A stretch of 64,000 bases of DNA from an uncultured Acidimicrobiales bacterium (GCA_963735375.1 CAVTKS010000002.1:68569-132568); one strand, 5' to 3'. Shown: positions 19,464 to 47,092, numbered from the stretch's first letter. The notes: generated from the letters alone by a model not told the origin. Translations and numbers: made by a program.

Positions 19464-20348
19464 TCATTCGTCGAACACCCTCTGCTCCTCGGGGAGCGCC
19501 AGCAGCCTCCCGGCCCACACCCAGCACGCCACCACCGCGCCGATCCCCACGACGACCATCATCTGGCCCCAAGGCGTGGCGTACGCTGCCCGCCCGTTGC
19601 CGATGGTCATGCCCACGAGCGCCATGCCGAGGGGCACCAGCAGGACGAACCGTCGTGCGAAACGCACGCCGGCCTGCTTGGAACGGGCGTCCTTGCGCCC
19701 CTGCACGTCGATGACACGGTCGTCGATCAGCGCTTCGAGGCGGCGGTCGAGGTCGGACCCGCCCACCTCGTGGGCGACCAGCAGGGTCTCGCAGGCCGCG
19801 TCGGCGGTGGGGTCGGCGAGGCCGGCCTTGAGCACACTGACCGTCCGCCCGAAGTCGGTCGACAGCAACCACTCCCGCTGAGCGGCGACGAACGCGGGGC
19901 GCAGGCTCTCCGGTGCGCGCCGGCCGGCCTCGAACAGGGCCTGGGGCACCGACCGGCCGAGTGACGAGGTCAGGATGCGGATCTCCTCGATGATCCGGGG
20001 CCACGACTCCTGCGCCGCCGTCCGGCGCTGCGCACGGCGTACCCGGTACGAGGCCAGGGGCGTGGCGCCGATGCACACGCCGAGCGCCACGGCCGGAAGC
20101 GGCCCGCCGAACAGCGCCAGCCCCGCCACCGCGCCTGCCACCACCAGGCCCGCCGTGACGACGCCGAACTGCCGCACGTCGACGTCGCCGATCCCGGCCT
20201 GCACCAGCCAGTCCGACGGGCCCGGCCCGCGACGAGCCGCGCGTGTCGGGGCCGGACCGAGCCCTGTCCCCCGCCACCCGAGCGCCAGCGCGGTGTACAG
20301 GTAGTAGGCGCCGGCCGAGGCGCTCAGCGCCAGGAGGAGCCCGGTCAT
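19464..20348 (-). CDS. tadB: Type II secretion system F family protein (TadB-like)
   Basis: ATG 20348 overlaps the tadA stop (ATGA). 294 aa (MTGLLLALSASAGAYYLY..) with T2SS-F topology. The track ORF 19464..21377 is real only from 20348. Confidence 0.75.
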   Translation of the reverse strand: MTGLLLALSASAGAYYLYTALALGWRGTGLGPAPTRAARRGPGPSDWLVQAGIGDVDVRQFGVVTAGLVVAGAVAGLALFGGPLPAVALGVCIGATPLASYRVRRAQRRTAAQESWPRIIEEIRILTSSLGRSVPQALFEAGRRAPESLRPAFVAAQREWLLSTDFGRTVSVLKAGLADPTADAACETLLVAHEVGGSDLDRRLEALIDDRVIDVQGRKDARSKQAGVRFARRFVLLVPLGMALVGMTIGNGRAAYATPWGQMMVVVGIGAVVACWVWAGRLLALPEEQRVFDE

Positions 20349-21643
20349 CGGTAGGCACCACGGGGCTCGAGGAGGCCCCGGATGTCGTGGCCCGCGTCGG
20401 CCAGCGGCCGGACCGCCCTCGCCGGCACGTCGCCGGTCCACGCCAGCGGCTGGTCGGGGCCCGGCCGCCGGAACACCTCGGTCACGGTGAAGTGGGTCGC
20501 GTCGGCGCCTCCGGCCAGGTCCTCGACCATGGCCACCTCCGTGACCCGCGGGCCCGTCGGCGTGCGGGCGCAGTGGACCACGACATCGACGCTCTCGCTG
20601 ACCAGAGAGTTGAGCGCGGCGAGCGGGAGTCCGCCCGAGGTGTCGGCGAGCTGGCAGATGAACCGCAACCGCGTCAGCGCCTGACGGGCCGACCCGGCAT
20701 GGATGGTCGTGTACCCGGTCACGCCGGACGACAGCGTGAGCAGCAGCGGAAGCGCCTCGCGGTCGCGCACCTCGCCGACCACGGCGACGTCGGGGGCCAT
20801 GCGCAGGAACCCGGCGACCAGTCGCCGCAGGTCGACCGCGGGACGGTCGGACCGGGCCGCCCGGGTCTGCATCTGCGCCACGTTCGGCACCGGCACGTCG
20901 GACTCGAACACCTCCTCGGCGACCACCACCCGCAGGCCGGGGTCCAGCTCCGCGGTCGTGCACGAGAGCAGCGTCGTCTTGCCCGACCCGGGCGGCCCGG
21001 CGAACACGATGGACAGGCGCGCGTGCACGCAGGCCGCGAGGAAGCCGGCGACCTGCCCGGTCAGCATCTCGCGCTCGACCAGCTCGTCGAGCGACCGGAA
21101 CGGGATGCCGGTGAACTTGCGGATGTTGACCAGCACGTGGCCGCCGCGGGCGATGTCGCCGTGCACGATGTGGACCCGGGCACCGTCGTCGAGCTGGGCG
21201 TCCTGCAGCCCCTCGGCCGGATCGAGGCTGCGGTGAGCGGTCGACGCGTCGTCCAGCAGCTTGGTGAGCGTGCGCATCACGTGGTCGTCGTCGTGAAAGA
21301 CCTCGTCGTGGTAGCCGGACGGCCCGCGGTGCCTGCGCACGAAGATCGCGTCCGGGGCGTTCACCATCACCTCCCACACATCGTCATCGGCCAGCAGCGG
21401 AGTCAGCGGGCCGTAGCGCGCCAGATTGCGGAACGCCCGCTCGACGACCAGCTCGGGATCGGCCAAGGCGAAGGCACGGCGCCCCCGCCTGTGGTCGTCG
21501 TTCCAGCGCGCCACCTCCTCGGCGATGAGCGCCCGCAGCTTGGCGTCACCCCCCGGTGCCCCCATCTCCAGCGAGATGTCCTTGGCCCGCTCCTGCACGG
21601 CCCGCTCGATCTCCGCCAACGGCGACGACGCCGGACCACCCAT
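20345..21643 (-). CDS. tadA: TadA/CpaF-family secretion ATPase
   Basis: Walker A FAGPPGSGKTT. VirB11/CpaF-type motifs (VVGEVRDREA, TTIHAGSA). 432 aa. Confidence 0.88.
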   Translation of the reverse strand: MGGPASSPLAEIERAVQERAKDISLEMGAPGGDAKLRALIAEEVARWNDDHRRGRRAFALADPELVVERAFRNLARYGPLTPLLADDDVWEVMVNAPDAIFVRRHRGPSGYHDEVFHDDDHVMRTLTKLLDDASTAHRSLDPAEGLQDAQLDDGARVHIVHGDIARGGHVLVNIRKFTGIPFRSLDELVEREMLTGQVAGFLAACVHARLSIVFAGPPGSGKTTLLSCTTAELDPGLRVVVAEEVFESDVPVPNVAQMQTRAARSDRPAVDLRRLVAGFLRMAPDVAVVGEVRDREALPLLLTLSSGVTGYTTIHAGSARQALTRLRFICQLADTSGGLPLAALNSLVSESVDVVVHCARTPTGPRVTEVAMVEDLAGGADATHFTVTEVFRRPGPDQPLAWTGDVPARAVRPLADAGHDIRGLLEPRGAYR

Positions 21644-22513: not shown

Positions 22514-22845
22514 TCACGCCCTCGGTCCGCCAGGAAGCCCGTCCACCAGGCCCGGCAGCTCCGCCAAGCGGGGGGCGAACAGGTTGTGCAGCGGCTTGAT
22601 GGTGATCTCTGTCTTGCGGTCGATGCCCAGATCCTCCATGGCTGGCAGCATGCGCCGCTGGGCGAACTCCTCGAAACCGTCCTGGCTGTCCCAGATCTCG
22701 ATGACCCGATAACCGAAGTCGGTCTCCGCGGTGATGTGCAGGTAGATGCCGGGCTCCGGTCGCGCTCGACACCCATCCGGTCGAGCACAGCTCGGTATTC
22801 GGAGTTGGGCATGTCGTAAACGTCGATGGTCGTGACGACGGTCAT
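22514..22845 (-). CDS. Small alpha+beta (ABM/EthD-like?) protein, apparent frameshift near 22757-22768
   Basis: MTVVTTIDVYDMPNSEYRAVLDRMGVE in one frame. It continues as PEPGIYLHITAETDFGYRVIEIWDSQDGFEEFAQRRMLPAMEDLGIDRK..GGPRA* in another frame, with stop TGA at 22514-22516. Family call is tentative. Confidence 0.5.
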
Positions 22846-22912
22846 GAACGCTCCTCCTTGGTGAGGTGATGACGGCCGCCCGGGCTCGGGCGGTCGTGGA
22901 TCCGATGGCGGG

Positions 22913-24695
22913 TCAGGGTGGCGTGCCGGCCGCGATCCAGCGTTCGAACGCCTCGATCCTCTCGGGGGGCCACGCGCCGTCGCACGGCATGGTCCCTGCC
23001 GTGAGCTGATCGAGGATGGCGTCGGCGTGCCGGCTCACGTCTTCGTGTGACCAGAGGTCGAAGGCGAAGCGCATCGACTGGCGGTCCTTGGTTCGGAACA
23101 GCGGCTTGATGTGGGCGGTGAAGGTCGGGGTCTCCCCGGCCCCGGGTAGCTGCACCGGTTGCTGGTCGTCGCCGCGCGTCGCGGTCGGTTGCGAGCGCGG
23201 AGGCGCGGGAGCCGGGTGTGGCGTCGCAGACCCACCACCAGCGCGGCACCGGCATGTGCTGTGGGGGTTTCGCTCCGGGCGTGGAGTTCTCGACCGCGAT
23301 GCGGGTGCCCCACTCGATGTAGGACACGAATGCGGCGCGGAACTCGGGGTCGGTCGGGAGGCCCGCCTCGGTGGCGGACTGGATCATCAAGCTGGCCCAG
23401 CGCGCCCGCTGTTCCTCCTTGAGGGCCTTGCCGAGGTGCTGGGAGACCATCCGGTCGTAGCCGCCGTAGGTCTCGGTGTAGCGCGCGGGTCCGCCGAACG
23501 TCTCACCCAGCCAGGCGGCCACGCGGTCGGGATGATCCGGTGACATGTTGGCGAACAGGGGGGCCAGCAGGGGGTCTTCGGGCACGTGCTTCTCGTAGAA
23601 GATGTGGGTCATCCGCAGCAGCGCGGTGAACCCGCCGGCCCACTCGAACAGGGTCGGCTCGTCGCTCAGCGGAGGGTCCTGGAAGTCGACGTACCAGTGC
23701 ATGCCGCTGCAGAACGGCTTGTTCTGCGCGTGCCCGCAGCGACAGAGGCTGTAGTGCTCCAGCGACGCACCGGCGTTGCGGGCCACCGGATTGCGATCGG
23801 CGTTCAGCAGCGGGATCCCTCCGGTGATCCGGTACGGCCCGTCCTTCGAGACCTCGATGGTCTGCTCGCGCTCCTCGTCGATGTGGCCGCGGGCCTCGCG
23901 TTCCTCGACTGCGAGGCCGAGCGCCCCGGACGGGCACGCCTTGACGGCGCGGACGATCTCGTCCATCCGGCCGCCGCTGGGGGCGACGAAGGCGTCGGCC
24001 TCGCGCTGGAAGACGGTCGGCAGCCGGTTTGTGCAGAACCCGGAGTGGGCGCAGGTGCCACGGTTGTCCTGCACGGTGACCTGCAGGCCGACGTAGGTGT
24101 CGAGCCGGTCAGGGACCCGGTCGGGGTCCTTGCCGTCCGTAAACCCGATCTCGGCATGCGTGCCATCGCAGAGGGGCTTTGATCTTGACTGCCCGCAACG
24201 GCACAGGGCCATCTGCGGCATGGTCGGCATGTCGACGCCGAGCCAGCTCCGCAGACGCTCTGGGTTGGTGACGAGATAGGGCCCACCGGCCTCGGTGTGG
24301 ATCGTGCTCGGGAGGGACCTTTGCAGATCCGCGAGGCTCGCCCGGCGCGCCGCTGCGTCGTCGGGAGCCAGCGTGATGGCGAGGTCCTGCAGCCCCGCCA
24401 CCGCCTCGACGACCTCCAGAGGTAGGTCGTCGTGGTGCTCGACCCGCAGCCGGGTCGCTCGACGGGCCAGGGCCAGTGCTCGTTCCGCGGCTGACCCGCC
24501 AGGACCGGCGTCGCCGGCGGGAGCCGGCCGTGGGTCGGTCGGCCGTCCCCCCGACCCCGCCAGGTGCGCCAGTGCGTGGTCGAGCGGCCGGAGCACCGAA
24601 CGACGCAGCTGCTGGCGCGGCTGCTCGTCGGCGAGGTCCTGCTCGAACGCCGCGGCAGCGTGTCGCAGGTCATGGAGCGCGTCCTCGACGGTCAT
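22913..24695 (-). CDS. Multidomain redox protein: helical N-domain - CDGSH - divergent 4Fe-4S - CDGSH-like - truncated globin - conserved C-terminal domain; apparent frameshift about 23160-23225
   Basis: Motifs: CRCGQSRSKPLCDGTH (canonical CDGSH), GTCAHSGFC..CPSGAL (mono-cluster ferredoxin), CRCGHAQNKPFCSGMH, and a trHb-like segment (FEWAGGFTALLRMTHIFYEKHV..MVSQHLGKAL). The last ~80 aa (TFTAHIKPLFRTKDRQSMRFAFDLW..) are in a different frame ending at 22913. GAGGAG RBS before ATG 24695. Confidence 0.7.
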
Positions 24696-24713
24696 GATCG
24701 CTCCTCGGTGATG

Positions 24714-25363
24714 TCAGTAGTGGGGGGTGGGCGGGAATCTCGTGGCCCTGCTGCACGGCCTCGGCGACGGCGCGGGCCTCGGGGAGCCGGTACTCCTCGC
24801 CGTACACCGAGCCCGGTCGGCGGGGGGCCTCCATGACCGCGGCGTCCGCGTTGACCCCAGGTCGACTGCGGCGAACCCGGCGTCCTCGATCAGTGTGGGA
24901 CGATCGCTTGCGGCTGGGAAGTCCCGCAATGAACAGGACGCACGTCGTCGCGCCGGAGCGACGCCTCCGCCTGGAACCCCGAGGTCAGCGTGTTGAAGGC
25001 CCGGACGTAGCGGGCGCCGGGTATGCGCGCCGAGTTGAACTGGGCCACCGTCTGTCCGTTGGGGGGTTTGGCGCCCGTGCCGAACGGGTTCGTGCTGTCG
25101 ACCACGACCATGCCGGCCAGCGGCCCCGCTTCTTTCAGCGCCTGGTCGATGGCGTCCCAGGGCACGGCCAGCACCACGACGTCAGCGTCGGCCACGGCGT
25201 GGGCGGGGGTAGTGGCGCGGACATGGTCGCCGAGCTCGGCAGCGCGGGCGGCGAGCTGGTCGGGGTGCCGCGAGAAGCTGATCAGCACGTCGTGACCGGC
25301 CCGTGACCATGACCGGGCCGCAGTGCCGCCGATGCGGCCAGCTCCGACGATGGCAAGTCGCAC
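24714..25363 (-). pseudogene. NADPH-dependent F420 reductase-like (Npd/NAD(P)-binding) gene with at least 4 frame changes
   Basis: GTG 25363 gives VRLAIVGAGRIGG Rossmann motif ..VVVDSTNPF... Near 24940-24917 the protein-like reading hops frames (LFIAG, then DFPAASDRPTLIEDAGFAAVDLG). It hops again at C-run 24855-24858 (..MEAPRRPGSVYGEEYRLPEARAV..) and at G-run 24722-24727 before the stop at 24714. Confidence 0.6.
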
Positions 25364-25421
25364 AGCTGTCGGTGTAACCCCGCAGGCGACCACCGTCCAA
25401 CATCGATCGGGGCGGCTGGCG

Positions 25422-25436
25422 ACAAGCAGAGCTTGT
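25422..25436. promoter_or_regulatory. 15-bp dyad ACAAGC-AGA-GCTTGT in the npd/lysR divergent spacer (candidate LysR operator)
   Basis: Perfect 6-bp arms with a 3-nt spacer, read directly. Located between divergent starts 25363 (-) and 25463 (+). Confidence 0.3.
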
Positions 25437-25462
25437 GCCGAAGCAGCTATAGGGTCGGGCTC

Positions 25463-26403
25463 GTGCCCCCGGACCTGCGGCAGATGCGCTACGTGGTGGA
25501 GGTGGCAAAGGAGCAGGGCTTCACGCGCGCCGCCGTCAACCTGCACGTCGCGCAGCAGGCCGTGTCGCAGCAGGTCAAGGCGGTCGAGTTGGAGCTCGGG
25601 GTGAGAGCTGTTCGACGCGCACCAACCAGGGCGTCGAGCTGACCGCGGCCGGTGAGACGTTCGTCCAGGAGGCACGGCGAGCGCTCAACGCCGCCGACCG
25701 CGTCGGGCAGCGAGCGCAGGCCGCGGCGCGGGGTGAGGTGGGAACTCTGCGGCTCGCGTACACGCTCGCGACCGTGTACGAGGCGCTGCCGGCGTTGATC
25801 GATGCCCTGGCGGCCGAGCATCCCGAGCTGAAGGTGAGGCCGCGGGAGGTCTTCGCGGAGGACATCGAGCGGCTGCTCGCGGATGAGCGAGTCGATCTCG
25901 CACTGGCGCCACATGTTGGCCCACGAACCGGCCTCGACCAGCACCCTTTCCGGCAGGAGCCGTTCGTGGCCGCCGTGGCGGAGAACCATCCATTGGCCGC
26001 GGAGCCGCACATACCGCTCACCGCGCTGGCGGGCGAGACGATCGAGCTCTGGCCCCACGCCATGGCCCCCGGCTACTACGACGCCGTCGTCGCCGCCTGC
26101 CGTGCTGCCGGGTTCGAGCCGCGGCGCGACGAGCAGGCCGCCGGTTCCACCGTGTGGGGCAACATCGCCCGCGGGCGCGGCGTCGGCCTGGTCGTCGGAT
26201 CGCTCCGTGATCAGCTCCCGCGGGGGGTCACGCTCGTCGCGCTCGCAACGCCAGCGCCGACACTGGCGATAGAGCTCGTCTGGCCGGTCGACCGCACCAC
26301 GCCAGGCGTCCGGCGACTCATCGACGTCGCCGACCGGCTGGCCCAGGACCGCGGCTGGCTCGCGGGCCCGCCCTCCTCGACCGCCTCCGCGCACCGTCGC
26401 TAG
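25463..26403 (+). pseudogene. LysR-family transcriptional regulator, disrupted by two 1-nt insertions (about 25607 and 25617)
   Basis: HTH part (LRQMRYVVEVAKEQGFTRAAVNLHVAQQAVSQQVKAVELELGVR) is in one frame. LFD is in the +1 frame. RTNQGVELTAAGETFVQEARRAL..GTLRLAY.. plus the substrate-binding domain is in the +2 frame to stop 26403. Confidence 0.7.
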
Positions 26404-26693
26404 CGGACGGACTGCCAGGTTCCCGCCGAGGCCAGCGGCGAGCGTCCGGCGTGAGGGGCGGCGCTCACGGCGGTTGAGTCGGTACACACGACCTGACGCG
26501 CGCCGTCCGACCCGGGAAGGAGGGGATCTCCACCCGGCGAAGGAGCGGAGGAAGCGACCGAGGGGTGATGTGTTTGCGGCGTGCGATCTCGATGATGCCC
26601 GTACAGCGCCGGATCAGACGTTTCCGTCCGATGTACCGATCGAGTCAACGGCGCTCGCCCGGTCGGCAGGGCATCACGTGGAGGACATCAGAC

Positions 26694-27017
26694 ATGTCGA
26701 GCGACATTCCTGCACCAGGAGCAGATCCCGAGAGAACGGAGCTGAGGGCAGACGCTCACCGATGGGTCCGCAGGCAGCGGATCCTGTACACGATCCTGGG
26801 GATCTACCTCGTTCTGAGCCTCATGTGGTTCGCCATCGACATGGCCGACGGCACAGAGAACCTGTGGTTCTACTGGCCGATGCTCGGAACGGGCGTCGTG
26901 GTCGCGATCATCTCGGTCGTTCTCGGCGGCGTGGGAGGCCTGTTCGGATCTGACTGGGAGCAGCGGCAGGTCGATCGTTACGTCGAACAGCGTCGCCGCA
27001 GAAACCAGGACGGGTGA
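26694..27017 (+). CDS. 2TM domain-containing small membrane protein
   Basis: GGAGGA RBS 8 nt before ATG 26694. 107 aa with RWVRRQRILYTILGIYLVLSLMWFAI..LWFYWPMLGTGVVVAI, two TM helices. Confidence 0.65.
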   Translation: MSSDIPAPGADPERTELRADAHRWVRRQRILYTILGIYLVLSLMWFAIDMADGTENLWFYWPMLGTGVVVAIISVVLGGVGGLFGSDWEQRQVDRYVEQRRRRNQDG

Positions 27018-27293
27018 GCGGCAGCCCGCAGGCCCGATTCGGCCTTCGAGCACTGGGTCGACGCCGAGGCGCGGCGCCGCTGGTAAGCGCCCGAAGACGG
27101 ATATAGGGCCGGTTCGGTGTGCGGTTCTCCATGTCGACGCGGCCGTTCTGTACGTCCGTAGCCGAGCGTTCTGGCCGTCGACGTCAGGTCGCCGCCGCGA
27201 GCTGCCCGTCCCGACCGACCTCGGGAACGGTCTTCGTCAAGGGCGCGTCACGCCACCAATCAGCGGATCGTGCGAGCGACGTGGCCGACGAGC

Positions 27294-27905
27294 TCAACGA
27301 TTTATCGAGCGCCTGTGCGGTGGAGGTCCTGGTCGGGGGTCGTAGATGGCCAGGCTCCAGCCGAGGCAACCGCCTGTTTCGACGGCGGCGATCAGCAGGT
27401 CGGTGAGTTGACGCCAGGTCAGGCCACCGGGCTCGTCGTCAACCTCGGGCAGCCCTTGGGCTTCGAAGTGGGCCGGGTCGAGGACGTCCAAATCGACATG
27501 GAGCCACCACCGCTCGGCTTCGGCCTGGACGTGCTGCGCCGCGCCCCGCCCAGCCTCGACGGGATCTGCAGCCACGTCGCTGTCGGAACGGAACCAGATG
27601 GCCCGGTCGCGCAGTGACCCGACGTTGAATTGGCGCCTCCACGCCTCGTCGCGTGGCCCGAGCACGGCGAGTGCCTCGGATCGCAGTGCCGGCAGCCGAT
27701 GCTTGAGCGGACCCGATAGGAGCCGTCCGGTGAGTCCGAGCAACAATCCGAGTTCGGCGTTGGCGGCCTCGCCGTCCTCGGACACATCCAATGGCATGGT
27801 GTCCTCGTGGCCGTCGACGAATACGAGTCCGACATCGCCGAGACGGTCCCGCAGGCCGCTGACCGTGCCCAGCAGCGTCGAGCAATCAGCTCCGTAGACG
27901 CCCCG
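27294..27905 (-). pseudogene. Arginase/agmatinase/formiminoglutamase-family remnant lacking its N-terminal third
   Basis: Reads from the GADCS(TLLG) motif through VFVDGHEDT, LHVDLDVLDP and GWSLAIYDP. No protein-like N-terminal region upstream, where the VOC gene occupies the opposite strand from 27941. The C-terminus may also be shifted at C5 run 27333-27337. Confidence 0.55.
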
Positions 27906-27940
27906 AGTCCGCAGCCGCCGGCTGGGACGGAGGAACCGAG

Positions 27941-28405
27941 ATGAGTGACACACCAGGCCGGTCAGGCGACGGGGTGCTCGCCGGAGCCGACGTCGCTGCC
28001 AGGCTGCCAGCGCAGGACCTCGAACGAGCTCGGCGGTTCTACGCCGACAAGCTCGGCCTGCAGCCGGTCGAGGAGCGCGAGGGAGGCCTGCGCTACCGCT
28101 GCAGCTCGACCGTCTTCTCGTTGTTCGCCTCGGCCGGCGACCCATCGGGCCAGCACACGCAGATGGCCTGGGAGGTCGACGACATCGAGGCAGCGGTGGC
28201 CGAGCTCCGAGCCCGGGGGGTGGTGTTCGAGGACTACGACCTGCCCGGTCTGAGGACCGTCGACGGCATCGCCAAAATCGCCGGCACCTACCCATCCGAC
28301 GGTGGAATCGGCGAGAGGGCCGCCTGGTTCCACGACAGCGAGGGAAACCTTCTTGCGCTCAGCCAACCCATCCGGTCCCCGGCGAAGACTCTCCGGGCCC
28401 GGTGA
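27941..28405 (+). CDS. VOC (glyoxalase/bleomycin-resistance) family protein
   Basis: GGAGGA RBS before the ATG. 154 aa with RFYADKLGL..FHDSEGNLLAL pattern. Confidence 0.75.
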   Translation: MSDTPGRSGDGVLAGADVAARLPAQDLERARRFYADKLGLQPVEEREGGLRYRCSSTVFSLFASAGDPSGQHTQMAWEVDDIEAAVAELRARGVVFEDYDLPGLRTVDGIAKIAGTYPSDGGIGERAAWFHDSEGNLLALSQPIRSPAKTLRAR

Positions 28406-28420
28406 CCAGGAGCGCGTCTC

Positions 28421-29062
28421 ATGAGCGATCCCACCGACGACACGGCCGTGGTAGTGGTGAGGCGGGGGCAACAGCGTGCGGCGGCGGCGCCCATAGCGGC
28501 AGGGCACGCGGACTACCCGTCGTTCCGGTTCGTGTTCCCCGACCCACGACGTCGAGCCAAGGTGCTGCCGGTGTTCTTCGAAGCCACGGTGCGCGACGCC
28601 ATTCCCTACGGCGCGGTGCTGGCAGCCACCCACGGAGATCGGGCCGACGCCACCGCCGTCTGGTGGCCGCCCGGCGGCTTTCCGTGGACGCTGTGGCGCA
28701 AGGTCCGGGCCGCGCCTTCCCTTGCGCGGGTCATGGTCGCGGCACCCCGGTCGTTTCCCATGTTCATGCGCTATGGCGCCAACATCGAGGCAACCCACCA
28801 CGACGAGCGGCACTGGTACCTGGTCGTGCTCTCGGTACGGCCCGAATGTCAACGGCGCGGACTCGGATCAGCTCTTGTCGAGCCGATCCTCGATCGCGCC
28901 GACCGCGACGCCCTGCCCTGCCGGCTCGAGACCTCCGATCCCGCCAACGTGGCGTTCTACCAACGGTTCGGCTTCGAGGTCATCGACCCCGCACTCCCGG
29001 CGATTCCCGGCGGTCCCACGCTGACCACCATGCGACGACCGCAAACGGAGCACCGCACATGA
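28421..29062 (+). CDS. GNAT family N-acetyltransferase
   Basis: 213 aa. Acetyl-CoA binding motif VRPECQRRGLGSAL and C-terminal YQRFGFEV. Confidence 0.75.
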   Translation: MSDPTDDTAVVVVRRGQQRAAAAPIAAGHADYPSFRFVFPDPRRRAKVLPVFFEATVRDAIPYGAVLAATHGDRADATAVWWPPGGFPWTLWRKVRAAPSLARVMVAAPRSFPMFMRYGANIEATHHDERHWYLVVLSVRPECQRRGLGSALVEPILDRADRDALPCRLETSDPANVAFYQRFGFEVIDPALPAIPGGPTLTTMRRPQTEHRT

Positions 29063-29084
29063 CCGGGCCACAAGGAGGACCGTG

Positions 29085-29405
29085 ATGTCGAAGGAGAGGC
29101 TTGCACCACACGCAGTGGTCCTCGTGGTCTGCCCGCCTGTGACGCCCCGACTTCTCGTGCACAGCATCGTTACGAGGTCAGAAGCCGTCCGTCGACTACC
29201 ACATCATGCAGAGGCAGAGGCCGCCTTCGAGGACGGGCGGTTCGAGAGGACTCAGCCGGGCGTCCCGTCGGTGCGGACGGTGGCGACGAGAAGTACCCCC
29301 GGTGCAATCAGCCGCCCGTGCGCCAGCTCCGCGATCCGAGCCCCCAGACCGACCGGCGTAGCGCGCTCTGTACCCTACGTGACCGCGTGCCTCAGTCTGA
29401 AATAG
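29085..29405 (+). CDS. Hypothetical ORF with strong RBS in an AT-richer spacer (doubtful)
   Basis: AAGGAGGA 5 nt before ATG 29085. The translation is not obviously protein-like beyond about 40 aa. No family recognised. Confidence 0.25.
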   Translation: MSKERLAPHAVVLVVCPPVTPRLLVHSIVTRSEAVRRLPHHAEAEAAFEDGRFERTQPGVPSVRTVATRSTPGAISRPCASSAIRAPRPTGVARSVPYVTACLSLK

Positions 29406-29422
29406 GCTGACATACAACGACC

Positions 29423-30746
29423 TCACGCCGGCTGGTCGTCGTCGCTCCAGCTGCCGAGCGAGCCGGGCGCCACCAACACGGGCTCGGGCGGTGAGTCGGG
29501 GGGCGGCTGCACGTGGCGGGCGCGATCGAGCAGCCCGCGGACCGCGCCGACCAGCGGCTTGACCAACGGCGCCGGCGGGGCGACGGCGTCGCGGGCCGCC
29601 TCGCCGAGACGACGTCGCTCCGGGAGGAAGACCGGCGTCGACGCCAGGGCCGAGCCCGGCGCGGCCGCTGCGAGGAGGGCCGTCGAGCGCGCCGCCGACC
29701 TCGGCACGCTGCCTCGGCGAGCGCGGCGCCCGGTTGATGACCGGCACGATGCGAGCGGCGTCGACGCCCAGCTCGAGCAGGTCGCGCACCACACGGAGCT
29801 GCGACTGGACACCAGCGACGCCGGGGATGCCGACCGCCAGGACCAGGTCGGCGGCGACGAGACTGTGGCGGGCGAGGAGGTTGCGGTCCTCGACGTCGGT
29901 GGACCCGCACTGCGCGTCGCCCTCGACGTCGGCGTCCACGTCCGCGACCACCTGACGGTAGCTGCGGCGCAGGCTGTCGAGTGCGGCCTCGCACGCCCGC
30001 GGGCGCAATGCCGTCCAGTCCCGGTGCCGGCGCAGCCCGAGGAGGAGGTCGTAGCCGCGGTCCGCCAGCACGAAGCACAGCGCCCGCACCTCGACGGGTG
30101 GCAGCGCGCCGCCCTGGTGCGCCTCGACCAGCTCGAGCAGGCCCGGCACGACATCGCCCACGTCGTGGAGCAGCGCCTGGTGCGCGTGCAGCGCCAGGTC
30201 CGCGAGCACGACGAGCCCGCGGTCGCGCGGATCGGCGGCCAGCCCGGCGGACAGCGCCGTGGCGACCGTCGAGCGCCCGACGCCGCCGGCCCCGGTCACG
30301 GCGACGAGGCGACCGCGCCACGCGCCGCCGCTTGCGTCGAGCGCCGGCGGAGTGGGCGCGACGAGATCGTCGCCCCGGACGATGGGATGGGACACGGCGC
30401 GGAGCGCCTCGAGCAGCTGCTCCGGGCCGAACCCGGGGGGCAGCACCGCGTGGACGCCGAGGTCACGCCATGGCCGGGCGGTTCGTCCGTCGTCGGCCGC
30501 GATCACGGCGCACGCATGACCGGCGGCGAGCTCCACGAGGTCGCGATCGAGAGCCGCGAGCCCGGCGTCGACGAGCAGCGCGGAGAACGGCCGGCCCGAC
30601 CGCAGGCGCGCCCGGGCCTCTTCGAGGGAGACGACCTTCACGAAGTCGGCGGGGACCGTGGCCGACGTGGTCCACCGGGCCACGTCGCCGAACCAGGGCG
30701 CCCGCACCCCGGCGAGGCCGAGGACGACATACCGGTCGGCCGCCAT
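29423..30746 (-). CDS. Ssd/CpaE-like protein (helicase/secretion-neighbourhood type), apparent frameshift at G-run 29677-29679
   Basis: Receiver-like N-domain, then a deviant Walker A (VTGAGGVGRSTVATALS) and ..VINRAPRSPRQRAEVGGALDG in one frame. LLAAAAPGSALASTPVFLPERRRLGEAARD.. continues in another frame to stop 29423. ATG 30746 overlaps the upstream stop. Confidence 0.7.
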
Positions 30747-31516
30747 CAACCGCCGACCTGAGCCCCGGTCGTGGTGGGCGTGCCCGGAGCCGCCGGGGTG
30801 CCCGCGGCGCCGGCAGCGGCGGCGCCCGTGGACGACGAGCTGCGGGTCACGTGCGTGGTGCGGACCAGGGTGACCTGCCCGTCACGTGCGGCGTGGATGA
30901 CCGGGACCCGCTGCGCCGGGTCGGTGAGCGCAAGCGTGACCGTGAGCTCACTCCCGTCGCCGAACGAGCCCCCGGCCTCGGTGACGGAGATCACCCGGAC
31001 CCCCTCGGCGACAAGCGAGGTCCCGTCGTCCTGCGTGGCGTAGACGTCCACCGTGTCGCCGGTGCGCAGTCGCCCGTCGACCGCCAGGTCACGGCCCAGC
31101 GACACCGACACCTCGGCCGCCGCCTCAGCGTGCCCCTGGTCGCTGAGCGCGCCCTGCTGCAGCAACTCGCCCTCGCCGACGGGGGCGACGAGCACCCGGC
31201 CCTCGAGGTCGGCCGGCGTGCGGAACGCCGCGCCCGCTACGCCGGACGGAAGGTCGATGGGCTCGAAGCGGATCGCGTCGGCCGTGATCGGATCGCCCGG
31301 CTGGAGCGTGCGGTCGGCCACGGCGTAGGACTGGTCCGGCGTCCCGGACGCGCGCTGCCACGACACGAATGTGCCCACGCCGGCCAGGGCGATGAGCAAG
31401 CCGCCCACCACCGCGCGGCTGCCGGGCACACCCGGCACGCGCGTCACGACCCGACGCGGTGGTGCGCCTGGCAGATCGGTCGCGGCGTCGCCGCCGGTCG
31501 GCCGCGTCATCACCAT
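30746..31516 (-). CDS. CpaB/RcpC-like SAF-domain pilus assembly protein
   Basis: ATG 31516. 256 aa with an N-terminal TM (AVVGGLLIALAGVGTFV), a SAF-like domain (LQPGDPITADAIRFEPIDLP) and an Ala/Gly/Thr/Ser/Pro-rich tail. Confidence 0.7.
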   Translation of the reverse strand: MVMTRPTGGDAATDLPGAPPRRVVTRVPGVPGSRAVVGGLLIALAGVGTFVSWQRASGTPDQSYAVADRTLQPGDPITADAIRFEPIDLPSGVAGAAFRTPADLEGRVLVAPVGEGELLQQGALSDQGHAEAAAEVSVSLGRDLAVDGRLRTGDTVDVYATQDDGTSLVAEGVRVISVTEAGGSFGDGSELTVTLALTDPAQRVPVIHAARDGQVTLVRTTHVTRSSSSTGAAAAGAAGTPAAPGTPTTTGAQVGG

Positions 31517-31663
31517 GTCGTGCCACCTCTCCCCAGCTGCAACGGCGCCACCGAGCACCCGACGCCGGCGCGAGGGGTGTGGTGAGGTCCACACCATACG
31601 TGGTCTCACGAACGTCGCCAGGAGTTGACCGAAAGATGCCCAAACACCACACGAGGAGGTAAC

Positions 31664-31912
31664 GTGTCCGGCGTGAACACCGACGAGACCGATTGGCTCT
31701 CGACCCAGGAAGCCGCGCGCCGGCTCGGGATCACCCCCCGAACCCTGTACCGGTTCATCGACCACGGCGAGCTGCCGGCCTACCGCTTCGGTCGGGTCAT
31801 CCGCCTGCGCGGGCACGAGGTCGACGAGTTCATCAGCCGATCCCGTATCCAGCCCGGCGAGCTCGAGCACCTGTACCCCGAGCCGGCCGTCCGCGGCGAC
31901 GACGAGTCCTGA
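31664..31912 (+). CDS. Excisionase-family helix-turn-helix DNA-binding protein
   Basis: GAGGAGG RBS 4 nt before GTG 31664. WLSTQEAARRLGITPRTLYRFIDHGELPAYRFGRVIRLRGHEVDEFI. Divergent from the cpaB-like gene. Confidence 0.75.
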   Translation: MSGVNTDETDWLSTQEAARRLGITPRTLYRFIDHGELPAYRFGRVIRLRGHEVDEFISRSRIQPGELEHLYPEPAVRGDDES

Positions 31913-44212: not shown

Positions 44213-44941
44213 CTAGCGCGCTTCGACTACCAGTTGGGCACGGAGGGCGGCCATCAACGCACCGACTGTGATTGCTGCAGTCTCTGCACGAAGAACGTGG
44301 GCGCCGATGCGGGTCCGGGGTAGGTCGGCGCCGCGTTCGCTCGGTGACCATCCCCCTTCGGGACCGACCAGCACGACCGGTCGCGCCAACGTGGGCGGGT
44401 CGCCGTCGAGGTCGGCCATCGTCGCTCCCACGAGGCCGGCCACCTGCGCGAACGATGCCACCTGGTCGACCTGGGGCAGCCATGTGCGCCGGCACTGGAC
44501 CGCGGCCTGGCGGGCGATGTCGGTCAACCGCGACACCTGGCGGTCGGCCTTCGTCTCGTCCCAGCGCACCACGCCGCGCTCGGCCATGAACGGGATCAGT
44601 CGGTCGACGCCGAGCTCGGTGAGCTTCTGCACCGCCAGCTCGGGCCGATCGCCCTTGACCACGGCGAACGCCACGGTGATCTCCGGCCGCGCACGTCGTT
44701 CGGTCGCGATCTCGCCGGTGACGTCGACATCGACGTCATCGGTCAGCCGGCCGCTCCGCCAGCGCCCGGCGCCGTCACCGACCGTGACGTCGCTGCCGGG
44801 CGCGAGGCGCAGCACCCGTGCGAGGTGGTGGTGGTCGTCGGACGACAGGCGCGGCGCGCCGAGGTCGTCGACGAACACGTGCGCCCGGGCCGTCAGGGGC
44901 GTGACGCCGGCAGCGCCCCCACCGGGGCCGACACCGCGCAC
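44213..44941 (-). CDS. rsmE: 16S rRNA (uracil1498-N3)-methyltransferase RsmE
   Basis: HVFVDDL N-terminus and C-terminal VLVGPEGGWSPSE motif. 242 aa. Start may be internal. Confidence 0.85.
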   Translation of the reverse strand: MRGVGPGGGAAGVTPLTARAHVFVDDLGAPRLSSDDHHHLARVLRLAPGSDVTVGDGAGRWRSGRLTDDVDVDVTGEIATERRARPEITVAFAVVKGDRPELAVQKLTELGVDRLIPFMAERGVVRWDETKADRQVSRLTDIARQAAVQCRRTWLPQVDQVASFAQVAGLVGATMADLDGDPPTLARPVVLVGPEGGWSPSERGADLPRTRIGAHVLRAETAAITVGALMAALRAQLVVEAR

Positions 44942-44947
44942 GGCCGC

Positions 44948-46073
44948 TTACTTGAACGCGGAGCGGATCTTGGACATCAGCCCGCTCGGGGGCGGGGCCA
45001 CGGCCTCGCCCCGCAGGTCGGCGAGCCGGCGGATGACCTCCTCCTCGTCCTCCGAGAGCTCGGTGGGCACGTCGACGACCACGTCGACGAGCAGGTCACC
45101 GCGGTTGCGGCGCTCGAGGTGCGGGACGCCGCGGCCCCGCACGCGGAAGGTGGTCCCCGACGCGGTACCCCGAGGGATCTCGATCTCCTCGGTGCCGTCG
45201 AGCGTCTCGAAGTCGAGGCTCGTGCCCAGCGTCGCCTGCGTGTACGGCAGGTGGACCGTGCTGTGCAGGTCGGCGCCGTCGCGCTCGAACCGGGGATGCG
45301 GCTTCACCCTCAGGTGGACGTACAGGTCGCCCGCCGCGCCGCCGCGCGGACCCGACCGCGCCGCGGCCGGACAGCCGGAGCGTGGACCCCGAGTCGACCC
45401 CCGCAGGGATGTCGACGGTGTAGGTGCGTTCCTCGACCGAGCGGCCCTCGCCCCGGCACTCGACGCACGGGCTGGCGATGATCTGACCCGAGCCGCTGCA
45501 ACGGGCGCACGGCGACGAGGTGACCATCTGGCCGATGAGCGATTGGCGCACGCGCTGCACCTGGCCCGTGCCCTGGCACTCGTAGCAGGTCACGGGCTCG
45601 GTGCCGTCGGCCGCACCGGTGGCCCGGCACGCGGTGCACGCCACGGCGGTGCGCACGGACACGGCGTGCTCGCACCCGAAGACCGCCTCCGTGAACTCGA
45701 GGTCGGCAACGACTTCGAGATCGGAGCCGCGAGGCGGACCGGAGGGGCGCCGGTTGCCGCCGCCGAACGGGCTGCCGCCGAAGAACGCCTCGAACACGTC
45801 GCCGAGGCCGCCGCCAGCAAAGCCGAACGGGTCGCCCGTCGGCGCGCCGCCGTTGACACCGTCGGGGCCGTACGTGTCGTACCGCTGCCGCTTCTCGGGG
45901 TCGGACAGCACCTCGTAGGCGTGCGCCACCTGCTTGAAGCGGGCTTCGGCCTCGGGGTCGCCGTGGCCCGTGTCGGGGTGCAGCTCGCGGGCGAGCCGGC
46001 GGAACGCGCGCTTGATCTCGTCGGCGGTGGCGGTGCGGGAGACGCCGAGCAGCTCGTAGTAGTCGGTGGCCAC
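44948..46073 (-). CDS. dnaJ: Molecular chaperone DnaJ, apparent 1-nt insertion at C-run 45351-45353
   Basis: GTG 46073. J domain (DYYELLGV..HPD), G/F region and 4x CxxCxGxG zinc finger in one frame up to ..LRLSGRGAVG. PRGGAAGDLYVHLRVKPHPRFERDG.. to stop 44948 is in another frame. Confidence 0.85.
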
Positions 46074-46084
46074 GGTTCTCTTTC

Positions 46085-47092
46085 TCAGCCCTCGGTGAGG
46101 CGGTCGGACAGGCGGTTGCTCACCACGGCGACGGCCGCCAGCGCCTGGGGGTAGTTCATGCGGGTGGGGCCGAGCACGCCGATGGTGCCGGCCCGCTCGC
46201 CCTCGATGTCGTAGGGGGCGACCACGATCGCGCACTCGGCCAGCGGGGCGACACCGGTCTCGGTGCCGATGGCCACGTGCAGCCCACGGTCGATGACGTC
46301 GCGGAGCAGGGACACGACGACGAACTGCTGCTCGAGGATGCCGAGCACCTCGCGCACCGTCTCGATGGCGTCGAACGCCTGGGCCATGCGCGCCGCACCG
46401 CCCACGAACACGTGCTCGGGGTCGTCGGGCTGGCGCCCGGTGAGGGCAGCCAGCGACCGGGCGACGAGGTCGTCGGTGGCCGCATCGCCCGTGGCGGGCA
46501 CGAGGGCCGGCGAGTCGCGCAGGACGCCGCTGAGGTGGGCGGTCATGTGGGCAGTCGCCGCGCCCACGCGCTCGTCGCCCGTGCCGTCGGGCACCTCGAT
46601 GGTGTGCTTCTCGACGGCGCCGTCGCTGTAGACGGCCACGAGCACGGCGGCCGTGGTGCTGAGCGTGACGAGCTGCACCGAGCGCACGCTCGCCTCGGCA
46701 GGGCTGGGCGCCACCACGACACTGGTCAGGTTGGTCAGGTTCGAGAGCAATCGGCTGGTCTCGGACAGCATCTGCTCGGCCTCGCCGTGGGCCCGGGCGA
46801 AGAACTCGCGCACCTCGACCGCAGACCGACCGCCGAGCCGGGCGGGCTCGCGCAGGTGGTCGACGAAGAACCGGTAGCCCTTCTCGGTGGGGACACGGCC
46901 GGCGGACGTGTGCGGCTGGCGGAGGTAGCCCTCGGCCTCGAGACCGGCCATCTCGTTGCGCACGGTCGCCGAGGACACGTCGACGCCCGGAGCCTTGGCC
47001 ACGTGGCCGGACCCCACGGGCTGCGCCGTGTCGATGTACTCCTCCACCACTGCCCGGAGGATGGCCGCTTTGCGTTCGTCGAGCATCGTCAT
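46085..47092 (-). CDS. hrcA: Heat-inducible transcription repressor HrcA
   Basis: LDERKAAILRAVVEEYIDTAQPVGS.. winged-helix N-terminus. 335 aa. CIRCE element upstream. Confidence 0.92.
   Translation of the reverse strand: MTMLDERKAAILRAVVEEYIDTAQPVGSGHVAKAPGVDVSSATVRNEMAGLEAEGYLRQPHTSAGRVPTEKGYRFFVDHLREPARLGGRSAVEVREFFARAHGEAEQMLSETSRLLSNLTNLTSVVVAPSPAEASVRSVQLVTLSTTAAVLVAVYSDGAVEKHTIEVPDGTGDERVGAATAHMTAHLSGVLRDSPALVPATGDAATDDLVARSLAALTGRQPDDPEHVFVGGAARMAQAFDAIETVREVLGILEQQFVVVSLLRDVIDRGLHVAIGTETGVAPLAECAIVVAPYDIEGERAGTIGVLGPTRMNYPQALAAVAVVSNRLSDRLTEG

Follow-up and report, generated by a model that had tools for sequence, protein, structure and literature searches.

The known group II truncated haemoglobins (trHbs), among them M. 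tuberculosis GlbO (1ngk), the T. fusca protein (2bmm) and B. subtilis YjbI (1ux8), are single-domain proteins of ~130 amino acids (aa). Chimeric group II members have also been described, namely an S. avermitilis trHb-ABM chimera (Bonamore 2007) and those of an in-silico survey (Hade et al. 2017), both as cited in PMC7475203 and PMC7082302. Passages of PMC9536834 and PMC4319818 attribute peroxidase-like and oxidative-stress roles to group II trHbs, and a passage of PMC3820574 states that globins require electron donors for nitric oxide (NO) dioxygenation. Among iron-sulfur (Fe-S) proteins, the type 7 CISD proteins of subtype CDC consist of a DUF1271/Fer4_19 domain between two CDGSH domains (Lin et al. 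2011, PMC3174974); Sengupta et al. 2018 (PMC5859297) likewise noted that CDGSH and Fer4_19 are associated. A protein in which a module of the latter kind is joined to a group II trHb, here called the fusion, is encoded in a 64,000-nucleotide stretch of DNA (the window) from an uncultured Acidimicrobiales bacterium (GCA_963735375.1 CAVTKS010000002.1:68569-132568).

The window has a G+C content of ~72%, and the reading frames between positions 22514 and 26403, counted from its first letter, hold four genes, one on the plus strand and three on the minus strand. A LysR-family regulator (25463-26403, plus strand) diverges from an FNO/STEAP-type, COG2085-like NAD(P)H oxidoreductase (24714-25363), the multi-cofactor fusion (22913-24695) and a small ABM-fold protein of ~110 aa (22514-22845), all three on the minus strand. 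The reductase stop (24714) is separated from the fusion start (24695) by 18 nucleotides (nt), and the fusion stop (22913) from the start of the small gene (22845) by 67 nt. This order, with its strands and coordinates, is the one laid out in the original prediction, which had been made from the sequence alone and had interpreted the three minus-strand genes as a self-contained electron-transfer chain for a truncated haemoglobin. The reading favoured here, at about even odds (roughly 0.5), is of a LysR-controlled stress operon that encodes a self-wired redox haemoprotein together with a non-obligatory, lineage-specific reductase.

The individual domains and the CDC module are known; what appears new is the Fe-S-wired truncated haemoglobin, which is widespread. 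A literature search, which did not cover the survey of Hade et al. 2017, found no paper joining CDGSH with a truncated haemoglobin or a bacterial globin; it also found no functional study of a multidomain CDGSH-trHb architecture. That architecture may already be listed in silico by Hade et al. 2017. A paper on a "novel haemoglobin" of A. baumannii proved unrelated to the fusion.

Predicted Fe-S sites joined to a truncated haemoglobin

The fusion, ~594 aa long once the frameshifts described below are corrected, runs from a helical N-domain through CDGSH, Fer4_19 and a second CDGSH to a group II trHb and an unannotated C-terminal domain. A sequence search returned 2664 matches, and of the 120 listed many are full-length homologues; intact homologues are 560-630 aa long, are up to 81% identical and span 100% of the frame-corrected protein. 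Databases name such proteins automatically either "CDGSH iron-sulfur domain-containing protein" or "truncated hemoglobin YjbI", and NCBIfam holds no model covering the fusion or the small protein. Two CDGSH motifs, a mono-cluster ferredoxin and a truncated globin had been read into this single protein from its sequence, and Pfam bears the reading out, each family scoring above its cut-off: zf-CDGSH (PF09360) over two stretches with 101.5 bits (cut-off 29.5), Fer4_19 (PF06902) with 55.4 bits (cut-off 24) and Bac_globin with 31.5 bits (cut-off 21). The F420_oxidored and LysR profiles were likewise matched by the neighbouring gene products. Overlooked at the time were the two ends of the protein, both of them conserved: a helical bundle that takes up the first ~130 aa, and a domain of ~75 aa at the C-terminus.

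The first CDGSH domain (24126-24290, minus strand; Pfam zf-CDGSH) is a predicted [2Fe-2S] site with the motif CRCGQSRSKPLCDGTH, a canonical instance of C-X-C-X2-(S/T)-X3-P-X-C-D-G-(S/A/T)-H. The second (23694-23843, minus strand; best Pfam stretch aa 285-334) carries the variant motif CRCGHAQNKPFCSGMH, in which the four ligands are kept and the D, G and S vary. In both motifs the three Cys and one His are invariant in 83 homologues, as are the ligands C215, H217, C221 and C254 of the intervening Fer4_19/DUF1271 mono-cluster ferredoxin (23910-24095, minus strand; aa 201-262; Pfam 6e-15), which follow the pattern C-x-H-x3-C ... C-P. Residues ~136-340 have the same CDGSH-Fer4_19-CDGSH order as the CDC proteins and fall within that subtype; their CDGSH units are type-4-like. 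Whereas the described CDC proteins stand alone, the fusion embeds the module between a helical N-domain and a trHb followed by a C-terminal domain.

The globin (23283-23654, minus strand; Pfam Bac_globin) belongs to the group II (O-type) trHbs, which make up its sequence matches in the Protein Data Bank (PDB; 5d1v, 2bmm, 1ux8, 1ngk). In an alignment with the T. fusca and Chloroflexus trHbs, His420 falls at F8, Tyr367 at B10 and Trp433 at G8, and all three are invariant in the 83 homologues. GlbO, the T. fusca protein and YjbI share with it the fold and these residues and are its best matches in sequence and structure, but the trHb of the fusion has Phe at CD1 and is covalently joined to three predicted Fe-S sites. 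The S. avermitilis chimera, as described in the papers that cite it, resembles the fusion in being an actinomycete group II trHb joined to another domain, and its ABM partner recurs at the window locus, although there the ABM protein is the product of a separate neighbouring gene. Flavohaemoglobin (Hmp) offers a further parallel: its globin is joined to the module that supplies it with electrons, which makes a self-sufficient catalyst. Its globin, however, is of the 3/3 type and that of the fusion of the 2/2 type, and Hmp holds an FNR-like FAD/NAD(P)H reductase, whereas the fusion would contain one-electron carriers only and would need an external entry point. The fixed, widely conserved joining of these domains, with invariant cluster ligands and haem-pocket residues, makes an internal relay from Fe-S to haem the natural reading, and this built-in relay is well supported by the anatomy of the protein.

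An AlphaFold2 (AF2) model was built on a homologue 80% identical to the fusion (P0002) with 83 sequences, and reached a predicted local distance difference test score (pLDDT) of 81.8 and a predicted template modelling score (pTM) of 0.73. The model contains a five-helix N-terminal bundle (residues 1-124, helices mostly above pLDDT 90), the first CDGSH domain, the Fer4_19 domain, the second CDGSH domain, a 2/2 globin (349-471), a disordered linker and a helical C-terminal domain (525-588). In Foldseek searches the globin matched 5d1v, 2bmm and 1ngk with template modelling (TM) scores of 0.80-0.84, and a CDGSH unit matched the type 4 CISD protein 3tbm with TM 0.84. The top 50 rows for the whole model gave globin and CDGSH matches only, with nothing significant for the N- or C-terminal domain.

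The N-terminal helical-bundle domain (24291-24695, minus strand; aa 1-135) is unannotated: it has no Pfam match even at E<=10 and no PDB fold match among the top 50 Foldseek rows, where rows other than globin and CDGSH stood at a non-significant E of ~0.7-1. Its derivation from a Ferritin-like domain was considered and is unsupported, the Ferritin-like fragment of P0251 sitting upstream of the region homologous to the N-domain. Longer variants of the fusion (P0093, P0104, P0113; P0256, P0294, P0329) have either an added N-terminal Ferritin-like domain, at 900-1250 aa, or a GTP cyclohydrolase II domain, at 821 aa and possibly through a gene-call merger.

The C-terminal helical domain of ~75 aa (22916-23155, minus strand), with the signature LFR..DR..M...FDLW....V......I......G.MPCD..W, likewise has no Pfam match. 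At E<1e-3 it was found in 1229 representative protein clusters, where it occurs in short proteins (some maybe fragments), in a five-fold tandem array (P0241) and at the C-termini of larger proteins; the larger carriers include the fusion versions with an N-terminal Ferritin-like domain (PF12902) and Haem_oxygenas_2 (PF14518) proteins. It is a new, widespread and unannotated module.

Distribution, neighbours and the question of a donor

In a survey of one genome per GTDB species the fusion was found at 409 loci, in every case at most 66% identical to the window protein. The carriers belong to the Actinomycetota (Catenulispora, Nocardia, Streptosporangium, Nonomuraea, Embleya, Actinacidiphila, Kribbella, Actinomadura, Solirubrobacterales and Acidimicrobiales) and, beyond them, to the Chloroflexota, Acidobacteriota, Dormibacterota and others. 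Neighbours were counted at 80 retrieved loci. A MarR regulator is present at 19 of them (directly divergent at 16), TetR at 14 and LysR at seven; a DJ-1/PfpI homologue also occurs at seven, a homologue of the window reductase within 6 kb at four, and a homologue of the small protein at one. One Nocardia genome has a member of the small-protein family 763 bp downstream of the fusion. The fusion is a conserved unit, mostly a stand-alone gene beside a divergent regulator, and the divergent MarR, TetR and LysR neighbours suggest that it is an inducible stress gene.

With a transcription factor nearly always adjacent, the fusion might instead be a sensor of redox state, NO or O2, or a protein for handling Fe-S clusters or haem, whose labile His-ligated clusters and haem would signal through the N- or C-terminal domain. 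The 3Cys-1His clusters of CDGSH proteins are known to be labile and responsive to redox state and NO (mitoNEET-type; PMC5859297), and the two conserved, uncharacterised domains could be interaction modules. Pfam searches, however, revealed no recognisable output domain, the adjacent regulators come from three families and hence give no sign of a fixed partner, and the C-terminal domain is also found on predicted redox enzymes (Ferritin-like and Haem_oxygenas_2). A sensing or handling role is considered improbable.

The reductase was called Npd-like in the original prediction, a description that stands at the level of the superfamily (F420_oxidored, 4e-19) and fails at that of the equivalog: an intact orthologue from L002 scores 44.6 bits on NpdG (TIGR01915), against a cut-off of 149.8, and the superfamily domain PF03807 alone is matched by the window enzyme. 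The closest solved structures are the uncharacterised protein 4huj (2e-25), the STEAP3 oxidoreductase domain (7e-13) and T. fusca FNO (5e-11), with the STEAP4 NADPH oxidoreductase domain and F420:NADP oxidoreductases also among the nearest. From these matches the enzyme can be placed in the FNO/STEAP superfamily of NAD(P)H enzymes. It has the dinucleotide-binding fold of the FNO and STEAP domains (5n2i, 1jax, 2vns, 2yjz), but differs from them in falling below the NpdG cut-off and in having an uncharacterised protein as its closest structure.

In the clade of the window the operon recurs intact. The arrangement LysR / reductase - fusion - small protein - DJ-1 is found on metagenomic contigs (L083-L086), and LysR / reductase - fusion - DJ-1/VOC/ABM+Y2318_C at L002, L092 and L093; in the last two, the stop of the reductase gene overlaps the start of the fusion gene. 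The reductase, fusion and ABM set is intact at ~76-81% fusion identity (L083-L086, L094, L103), and intact LysR genes at the same position in L002 and L083 are 78-81% identical to that of the window. Co-occurrence of the three genes in other genomes, which the original prediction required, is seen within the clade; across the family at large the reductase accompanies the fusion at four of 80 loci and the ABM protein at one.

A scan of metagenome contigs was centred on the reductase, with loci binned by identity to the window enzyme. At >=73% identity LysR is divergent at 16 of 17 loci and the fusion immediately downstream at 10 of 17. At 55-70% identity LysR is divergent at 1 of 18 and the fusion adjacent at 0 of 22. 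At 47-50% identity there is no divergent LysR, and six loci, together with the GTDB locus L005, have the opposite order, fusion then reductase. Because the reductase leads directly into DJ-1 in seven of the 17 closest loci, the core of the clade is LysR / reductase - DJ-1, with the fusion and the small protein as optional insertions. The fusion-less sister loci (L102, L104-L108, L113; e.g. L105 4692-6506) read LysR / reductase, DJ-1/PfpI, a 130-aa VOC-like protein and a membrane-anchored ABM+Y2318_C protein. A VOC gene in the window (27941-28405) is 38% identical to that of the sister loci and lies 5 kb off, beside a GNAT gene as in L093. At L001 (5693-5963), on a 148-kb contig of a relative, the reductase upstream of the fusion is cut to an 82-aa open reading frame (ORF; residues ~6-59 + 165-218), a natural internal deletion in which the fusion is retained without the reductase. 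Adjacency of reductase and fusion is also seen in distant lineages (L005, L026, L029, L141-L151), including Solirubrobacteraceae and Chloroflexota (L029, L026, L014); having arisen in at least two gene orders and recurring elsewhere, it is a modest signal of functional linkage.

These neighbourhoods bear on two other accounts of the operon. If the reductase were a dedicated NAD(P)H- or F420H2-dependent donor, a complete chain from NADPH through reductase and Fe-S to haem would be encoded, as the tight or overlapping reductase-fusion junctions of the clade, the 10 of 17 close reductase loci with the fusion immediately downstream, the reversed order in a second clade (L005 and L141-L151), the further juxtapositions in Solirubrobacteraceae and Chloroflexota and the STEAP-like kinship of the enzyme all suggest. 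Against so close a partnership, such a gene lies within 6 kb at just four of 80 fusion loci, the seven fusion-less close loci run straight into DJ-1, none of the 22 reductases of 55-70% identity has the fusion beside it, the enzyme is no NpdG equivalog, and no converter from two-electron to one-electron transfer is encoded. A dedicated donor is considered unlikely. The claim of a self-contained chain survives in part: the fusion of Fe-S and haem domains is fixed, its ligands are invariant and the arrangement recurs, but the reductase is near the fusion in 4/80 loci and is tied more to LysR (16/17) and to DJ-1. A dedicated NADPH reductase that completes the chain is weakly supported.

The genes may, alternatively, specify detoxification enzymes that are co-regulated and mechanistically independent, within an electrophile, carbonyl or oxidant regulon. 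The fusion would then be an optional passenger living on housekeeping electrons, and the reductase and the ABM protein would act on small molecules, e.g. quinones or aldehydes. The clade core, LysR / reductase-DJ-1-VOC-ABM+Y2318_C, exists with or without the fusion; distant homologues of the ABM protein keep company with FNO-type reductases, Lactamase_B, Glyoxalase, DJ-1 and aldehyde dehydrogenase at loci that lack it; and DJ-1 is near the fusion at seven of 80 loci. Separate juxtapositions of reductase and fusion in at least two gene orders, however, suggest more than shared regulation, as does the overlap of the reductase stop with the fusion start codon in two relatives. Such independence within a shared LysR regulon is somewhat less probable than not, and the neighbourhood data support it at least as well as they support the reductase as the donor of the fusion.

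The small protein has 411 homologues of ~110 aa, all "hypothetical" and without a Pfam domain. Its likeness to ABM, suspected from the start, holds for the fold: an AF2 model (pLDDT 89) has the ferredoxin-like order beta-alpha-beta-beta-alpha-beta, and Foldseek matched it to SnoaB, Rv0793, RslO4 and YgiN at E 3e-5 to 2e-4 and TM 0.55-0.6. It does not extend to the profile, since ABM (PF03992) scores 17 bits against a cut-off of 23.1; sub-threshold ABM matches occur in 7 of 49 family members, and no other family turns up. Where its distant homologues occur without the fusion, their neighbours are FNO-type reductases, Lactamase_B, Glyoxalase, DJ-1, aldehyde dehydrogenase and LysR/AraC regulators, so that clusters of the carbonyl- or electrophile-stress type can contain both the ABM protein and an FNO-type reductase while lacking the fusion. 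An IsdG-type role in haem degradation was considered for the small protein; the spacing of Asn, Trp and His is mismatched, and the idea remains speculation.

The LysR regulator was recognised by Pfam on two pieces, HTH_1 (3e-13; 25463-25642) and LysR_substrate (2e-29; 25738-26403). The spacer between it and the operon contains, as first reported, a 15-bp dyad, ACAAGCAGAGCTTGT (ACAAGC-AGA-GCTTGT; 25422-25436), which occurs once in the window against 0.02 expected in a pattern search. In the orthologous spacers of L083 and L002 the arms are unchanged and the central 3 nt differ (ACAAGC-N3-GCTTGT). Invariant arms around a variable centre are the signature of a protein-binding site, and the dyad is a candidate operator; the classical T-N11-A spacing is not matched by it. 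The dyad was spotted by sequence reading and pattern search, its 6-nt arms having been missed by an inverted-repeat tool. Divergent orientation, the two LysR domains and the conserved dyad together describe a divergent LysR-regulated operon. Beside the dyad, at 25376-25392, stands a second element, GATCG(A/G)TGTTGGACGG, which is also conserved in the spacers of L083 and L002; with TTGGAC, which resembles a -35 hexamer, it is a possible promoter of the operon. The annotation of L002 reads the GATCG(A/G) element as coding ("DRCWTV"), probably from an over-extended start. A promoter and terminator scan of the operon yielded nothing useful.

Frameshifts in the window copy

None of the four genes keeps an unbroken frame in the window, where ~14 insertions or deletions (indels) fall within 4 kb. 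The breaks were placed by tblastn with intact orthologues, by local frames and by DNA alignment to the intact, 82%-identical L083. Relative to L083, the LysR gene has two 1-nt insertions (~25605 and ~25616), the reductase gene about eight 1-2-nt deletions at 24952-24852 and one insertion at ~24737, which leave its 3' third scrambled, the fusion gene a compensated -1/+1 pair at 24550/24539 and one insertion at ~23175 (one net frameshift), and the small gene one 1-nt deletion at ~22765. None of the pieces contains an in-frame stop. The frame-corrected fusion has one private substitution (S323A) at columns otherwise invariant among 113 homologues, where intact homologues have 0-3. By composition-based segmentation the remaining window has mostly clean gene ends and intact ORFs of up to 3.4 kb.

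Some genes outside the operon are also disturbed. The dnaJ gene (45096-46235, minus strand), which lies next to hrcA (46085-47092) and an rsmE-like gene (44213-44941), has a frameshift at ~45330, its DnaJ_C match covering profile positions 2-59 of 152 and the remainder lying in another frame; a frameshifted housekeeping chaperone suggests indel errors in the assembly. A CpaE/TadZ-like pilus-assembly gene (29196-30749, minus strand), adjoined by a CpaB/RcpC gene (30749-31870), changes frame at ~29680 and has a plausible C-terminus in the frame of 29423-30154. Further pilus-type genes form a second set at ~15.2-21.6 kb, among them a gene for a secretion ATPase of the T2SSE family (20345-21643). 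An arginase-family remnant (27297-28295, minus strand) matches profile positions 91-242 of 280 only and looks truncated, the 5' part of its ORF overlapping the VOC/glyoxalase gene of the opposite strand (27941-28405); the coding signal is weak overall across 26444-29427.

Local assembly error is the probable source of the operon frameshifts, rather than true or ancient decay, because the proteins, once frame-corrected, show the same degree of conservation as intact homologues, because dnaJ is shifted too, and because eight single-base deletions in 100 bp amid well-conserved flanks are hard to reach via natural decay. Two specific origins for the errors were examined and set aside. Basecalling errors at a methylation motif (GCGCGAC) are rejected, the motif occurring 69 times in the window and 5 times in the operon against 4.2 expected; a homopolymer origin is unsupported, most indel contexts not being homopolymer runs.

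On an axis separate from the other explanations, the frameshifts may be real and the operon truly dead here, as four pseudogenes. The contrast between ~14 indels in 4 kb and a mostly clean window with ORFs of up to 3.4 kb is what decay would leave, the arginase-family neighbour is a remnant, the reductase of the relative L001 has decayed naturally by internal deletion, and sister lineages do without the fusion. Real decay is nevertheless hard to square with the lack of an excess of changes at invariant positions and of in-frame stops in the pieces, with eight single-base deletions in 100 bp beside well-conserved stretches, and with frameshifts in dnaJ and the pilus gene as well; it is considered the less likely origin. 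The original prediction was to fall if the genes proved to be dead pseudogenes in all relatives; the four-gene arrangement is in fact intact in relatives, and the window copy may be an error-laden or a dead instance of it.

A proposed self-wired haemoprotein and its possible role

Under the favoured reading, of a stress operon with a self-wired haemoprotein, the host would be a high-GC, actinobacterium-like soil organism and the locus an operon under LysR control, the regulator probably acting at the conserved dyad. Electrons from a cellular donor would most likely travel one at a time through the Fe-S clusters to the haem, so that ferric haem could be re-reduced internally, without a separate partner, after each turnover with O2/NO or peroxide. 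NO dioxygenation and the reduction of peroxide or hydroperoxide are the candidate reactions, activities that have been reported for group II trHbs. The electron entry point would lie outside the fusion, where the FNO/STEAP-type reductase is a plausible lineage-specific donor, probably via free flavin. In STEAP domains, to which it is related, the electrons of NADPH pass through flavin to haem. The reductase and the ABM protein, with the DJ-1/PfpI, VOC and ABM genes of relatives, would form a co-regulated toolkit for defence against oxidants and electrophiles. The make-up of the fusion, its invariant ligands, its wide occurrence, the frequencies of its neighbours and the conserved dyad are observations; cofactor loading, the direction of electron flow, the substrate and the donor are in each case inferred.

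Several observations weigh against this reading. F420 and NADPH are hydride carriers, F420 obligately so, whereas Fe-S clusters take single electrons. F420 would on that account be unable to reduce the clusters directly, and the reductase as donor would need a flavin mediator; the operon encodes no flavin domain to turn hydride transfer into one-electron transfer. No reductase is nearby at 76 of 80 fusion loci, and the fusion is absent from seven of the 17 loci in the >=73% group, where the reductase runs straight into DJ-1, then VOC and ABM. The Phe at CD1 (PLF), which aligns with the Tyr of PMYPEE in 2bmm, departs from the Tyr that is typical, though not universal, in group II. The AF2 model is without cofactors, and its Fer4_19 part has a moderate pLDDT of 55-75, a lower confidence that might reflect the missing cluster. 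Finally, the strong concentration of frameshifts in the operon is a pattern that also fits real pseudogenisation.

A bolder proposal, which must be regarded as doubtful, is that the fusion represents a new class of self-wired globin, a group II trHb re-reduced via three His/Cys-ligated Fe-S clusters and fed in some lineages by a STEAP/FNO enzyme. It would be a modular NO dioxygenase or hydroperoxide reductase distinct from flavohaemoglobin, with the MPCD domain at its C-terminus as a new redox-partner or metal-binding module that ferritin-like and haem-oxygenase-like enzymes would share.

The fusion gives the CDC-type CDGSH proteins a first concrete context and reveals a new, widespread C-terminal domain of ~75 aa, and its frequent MarR, TetR and LysR regulators and the adjacent DJ-1, VOC and ABM genes suggest that the relevant condition is oxidant or electrophile stress. 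The cellular reductant of truncated haemoglobins and the function of the group II members are long-standing questions, and the fusion bears on both. Its existence argues for a central role of one-electron supply to the haem, at least in this branch of the trHbs, and the transfer of electrons within the molecule, NO dioxygenation and peroxidase chemistry may all be measured directly on one polypeptide.

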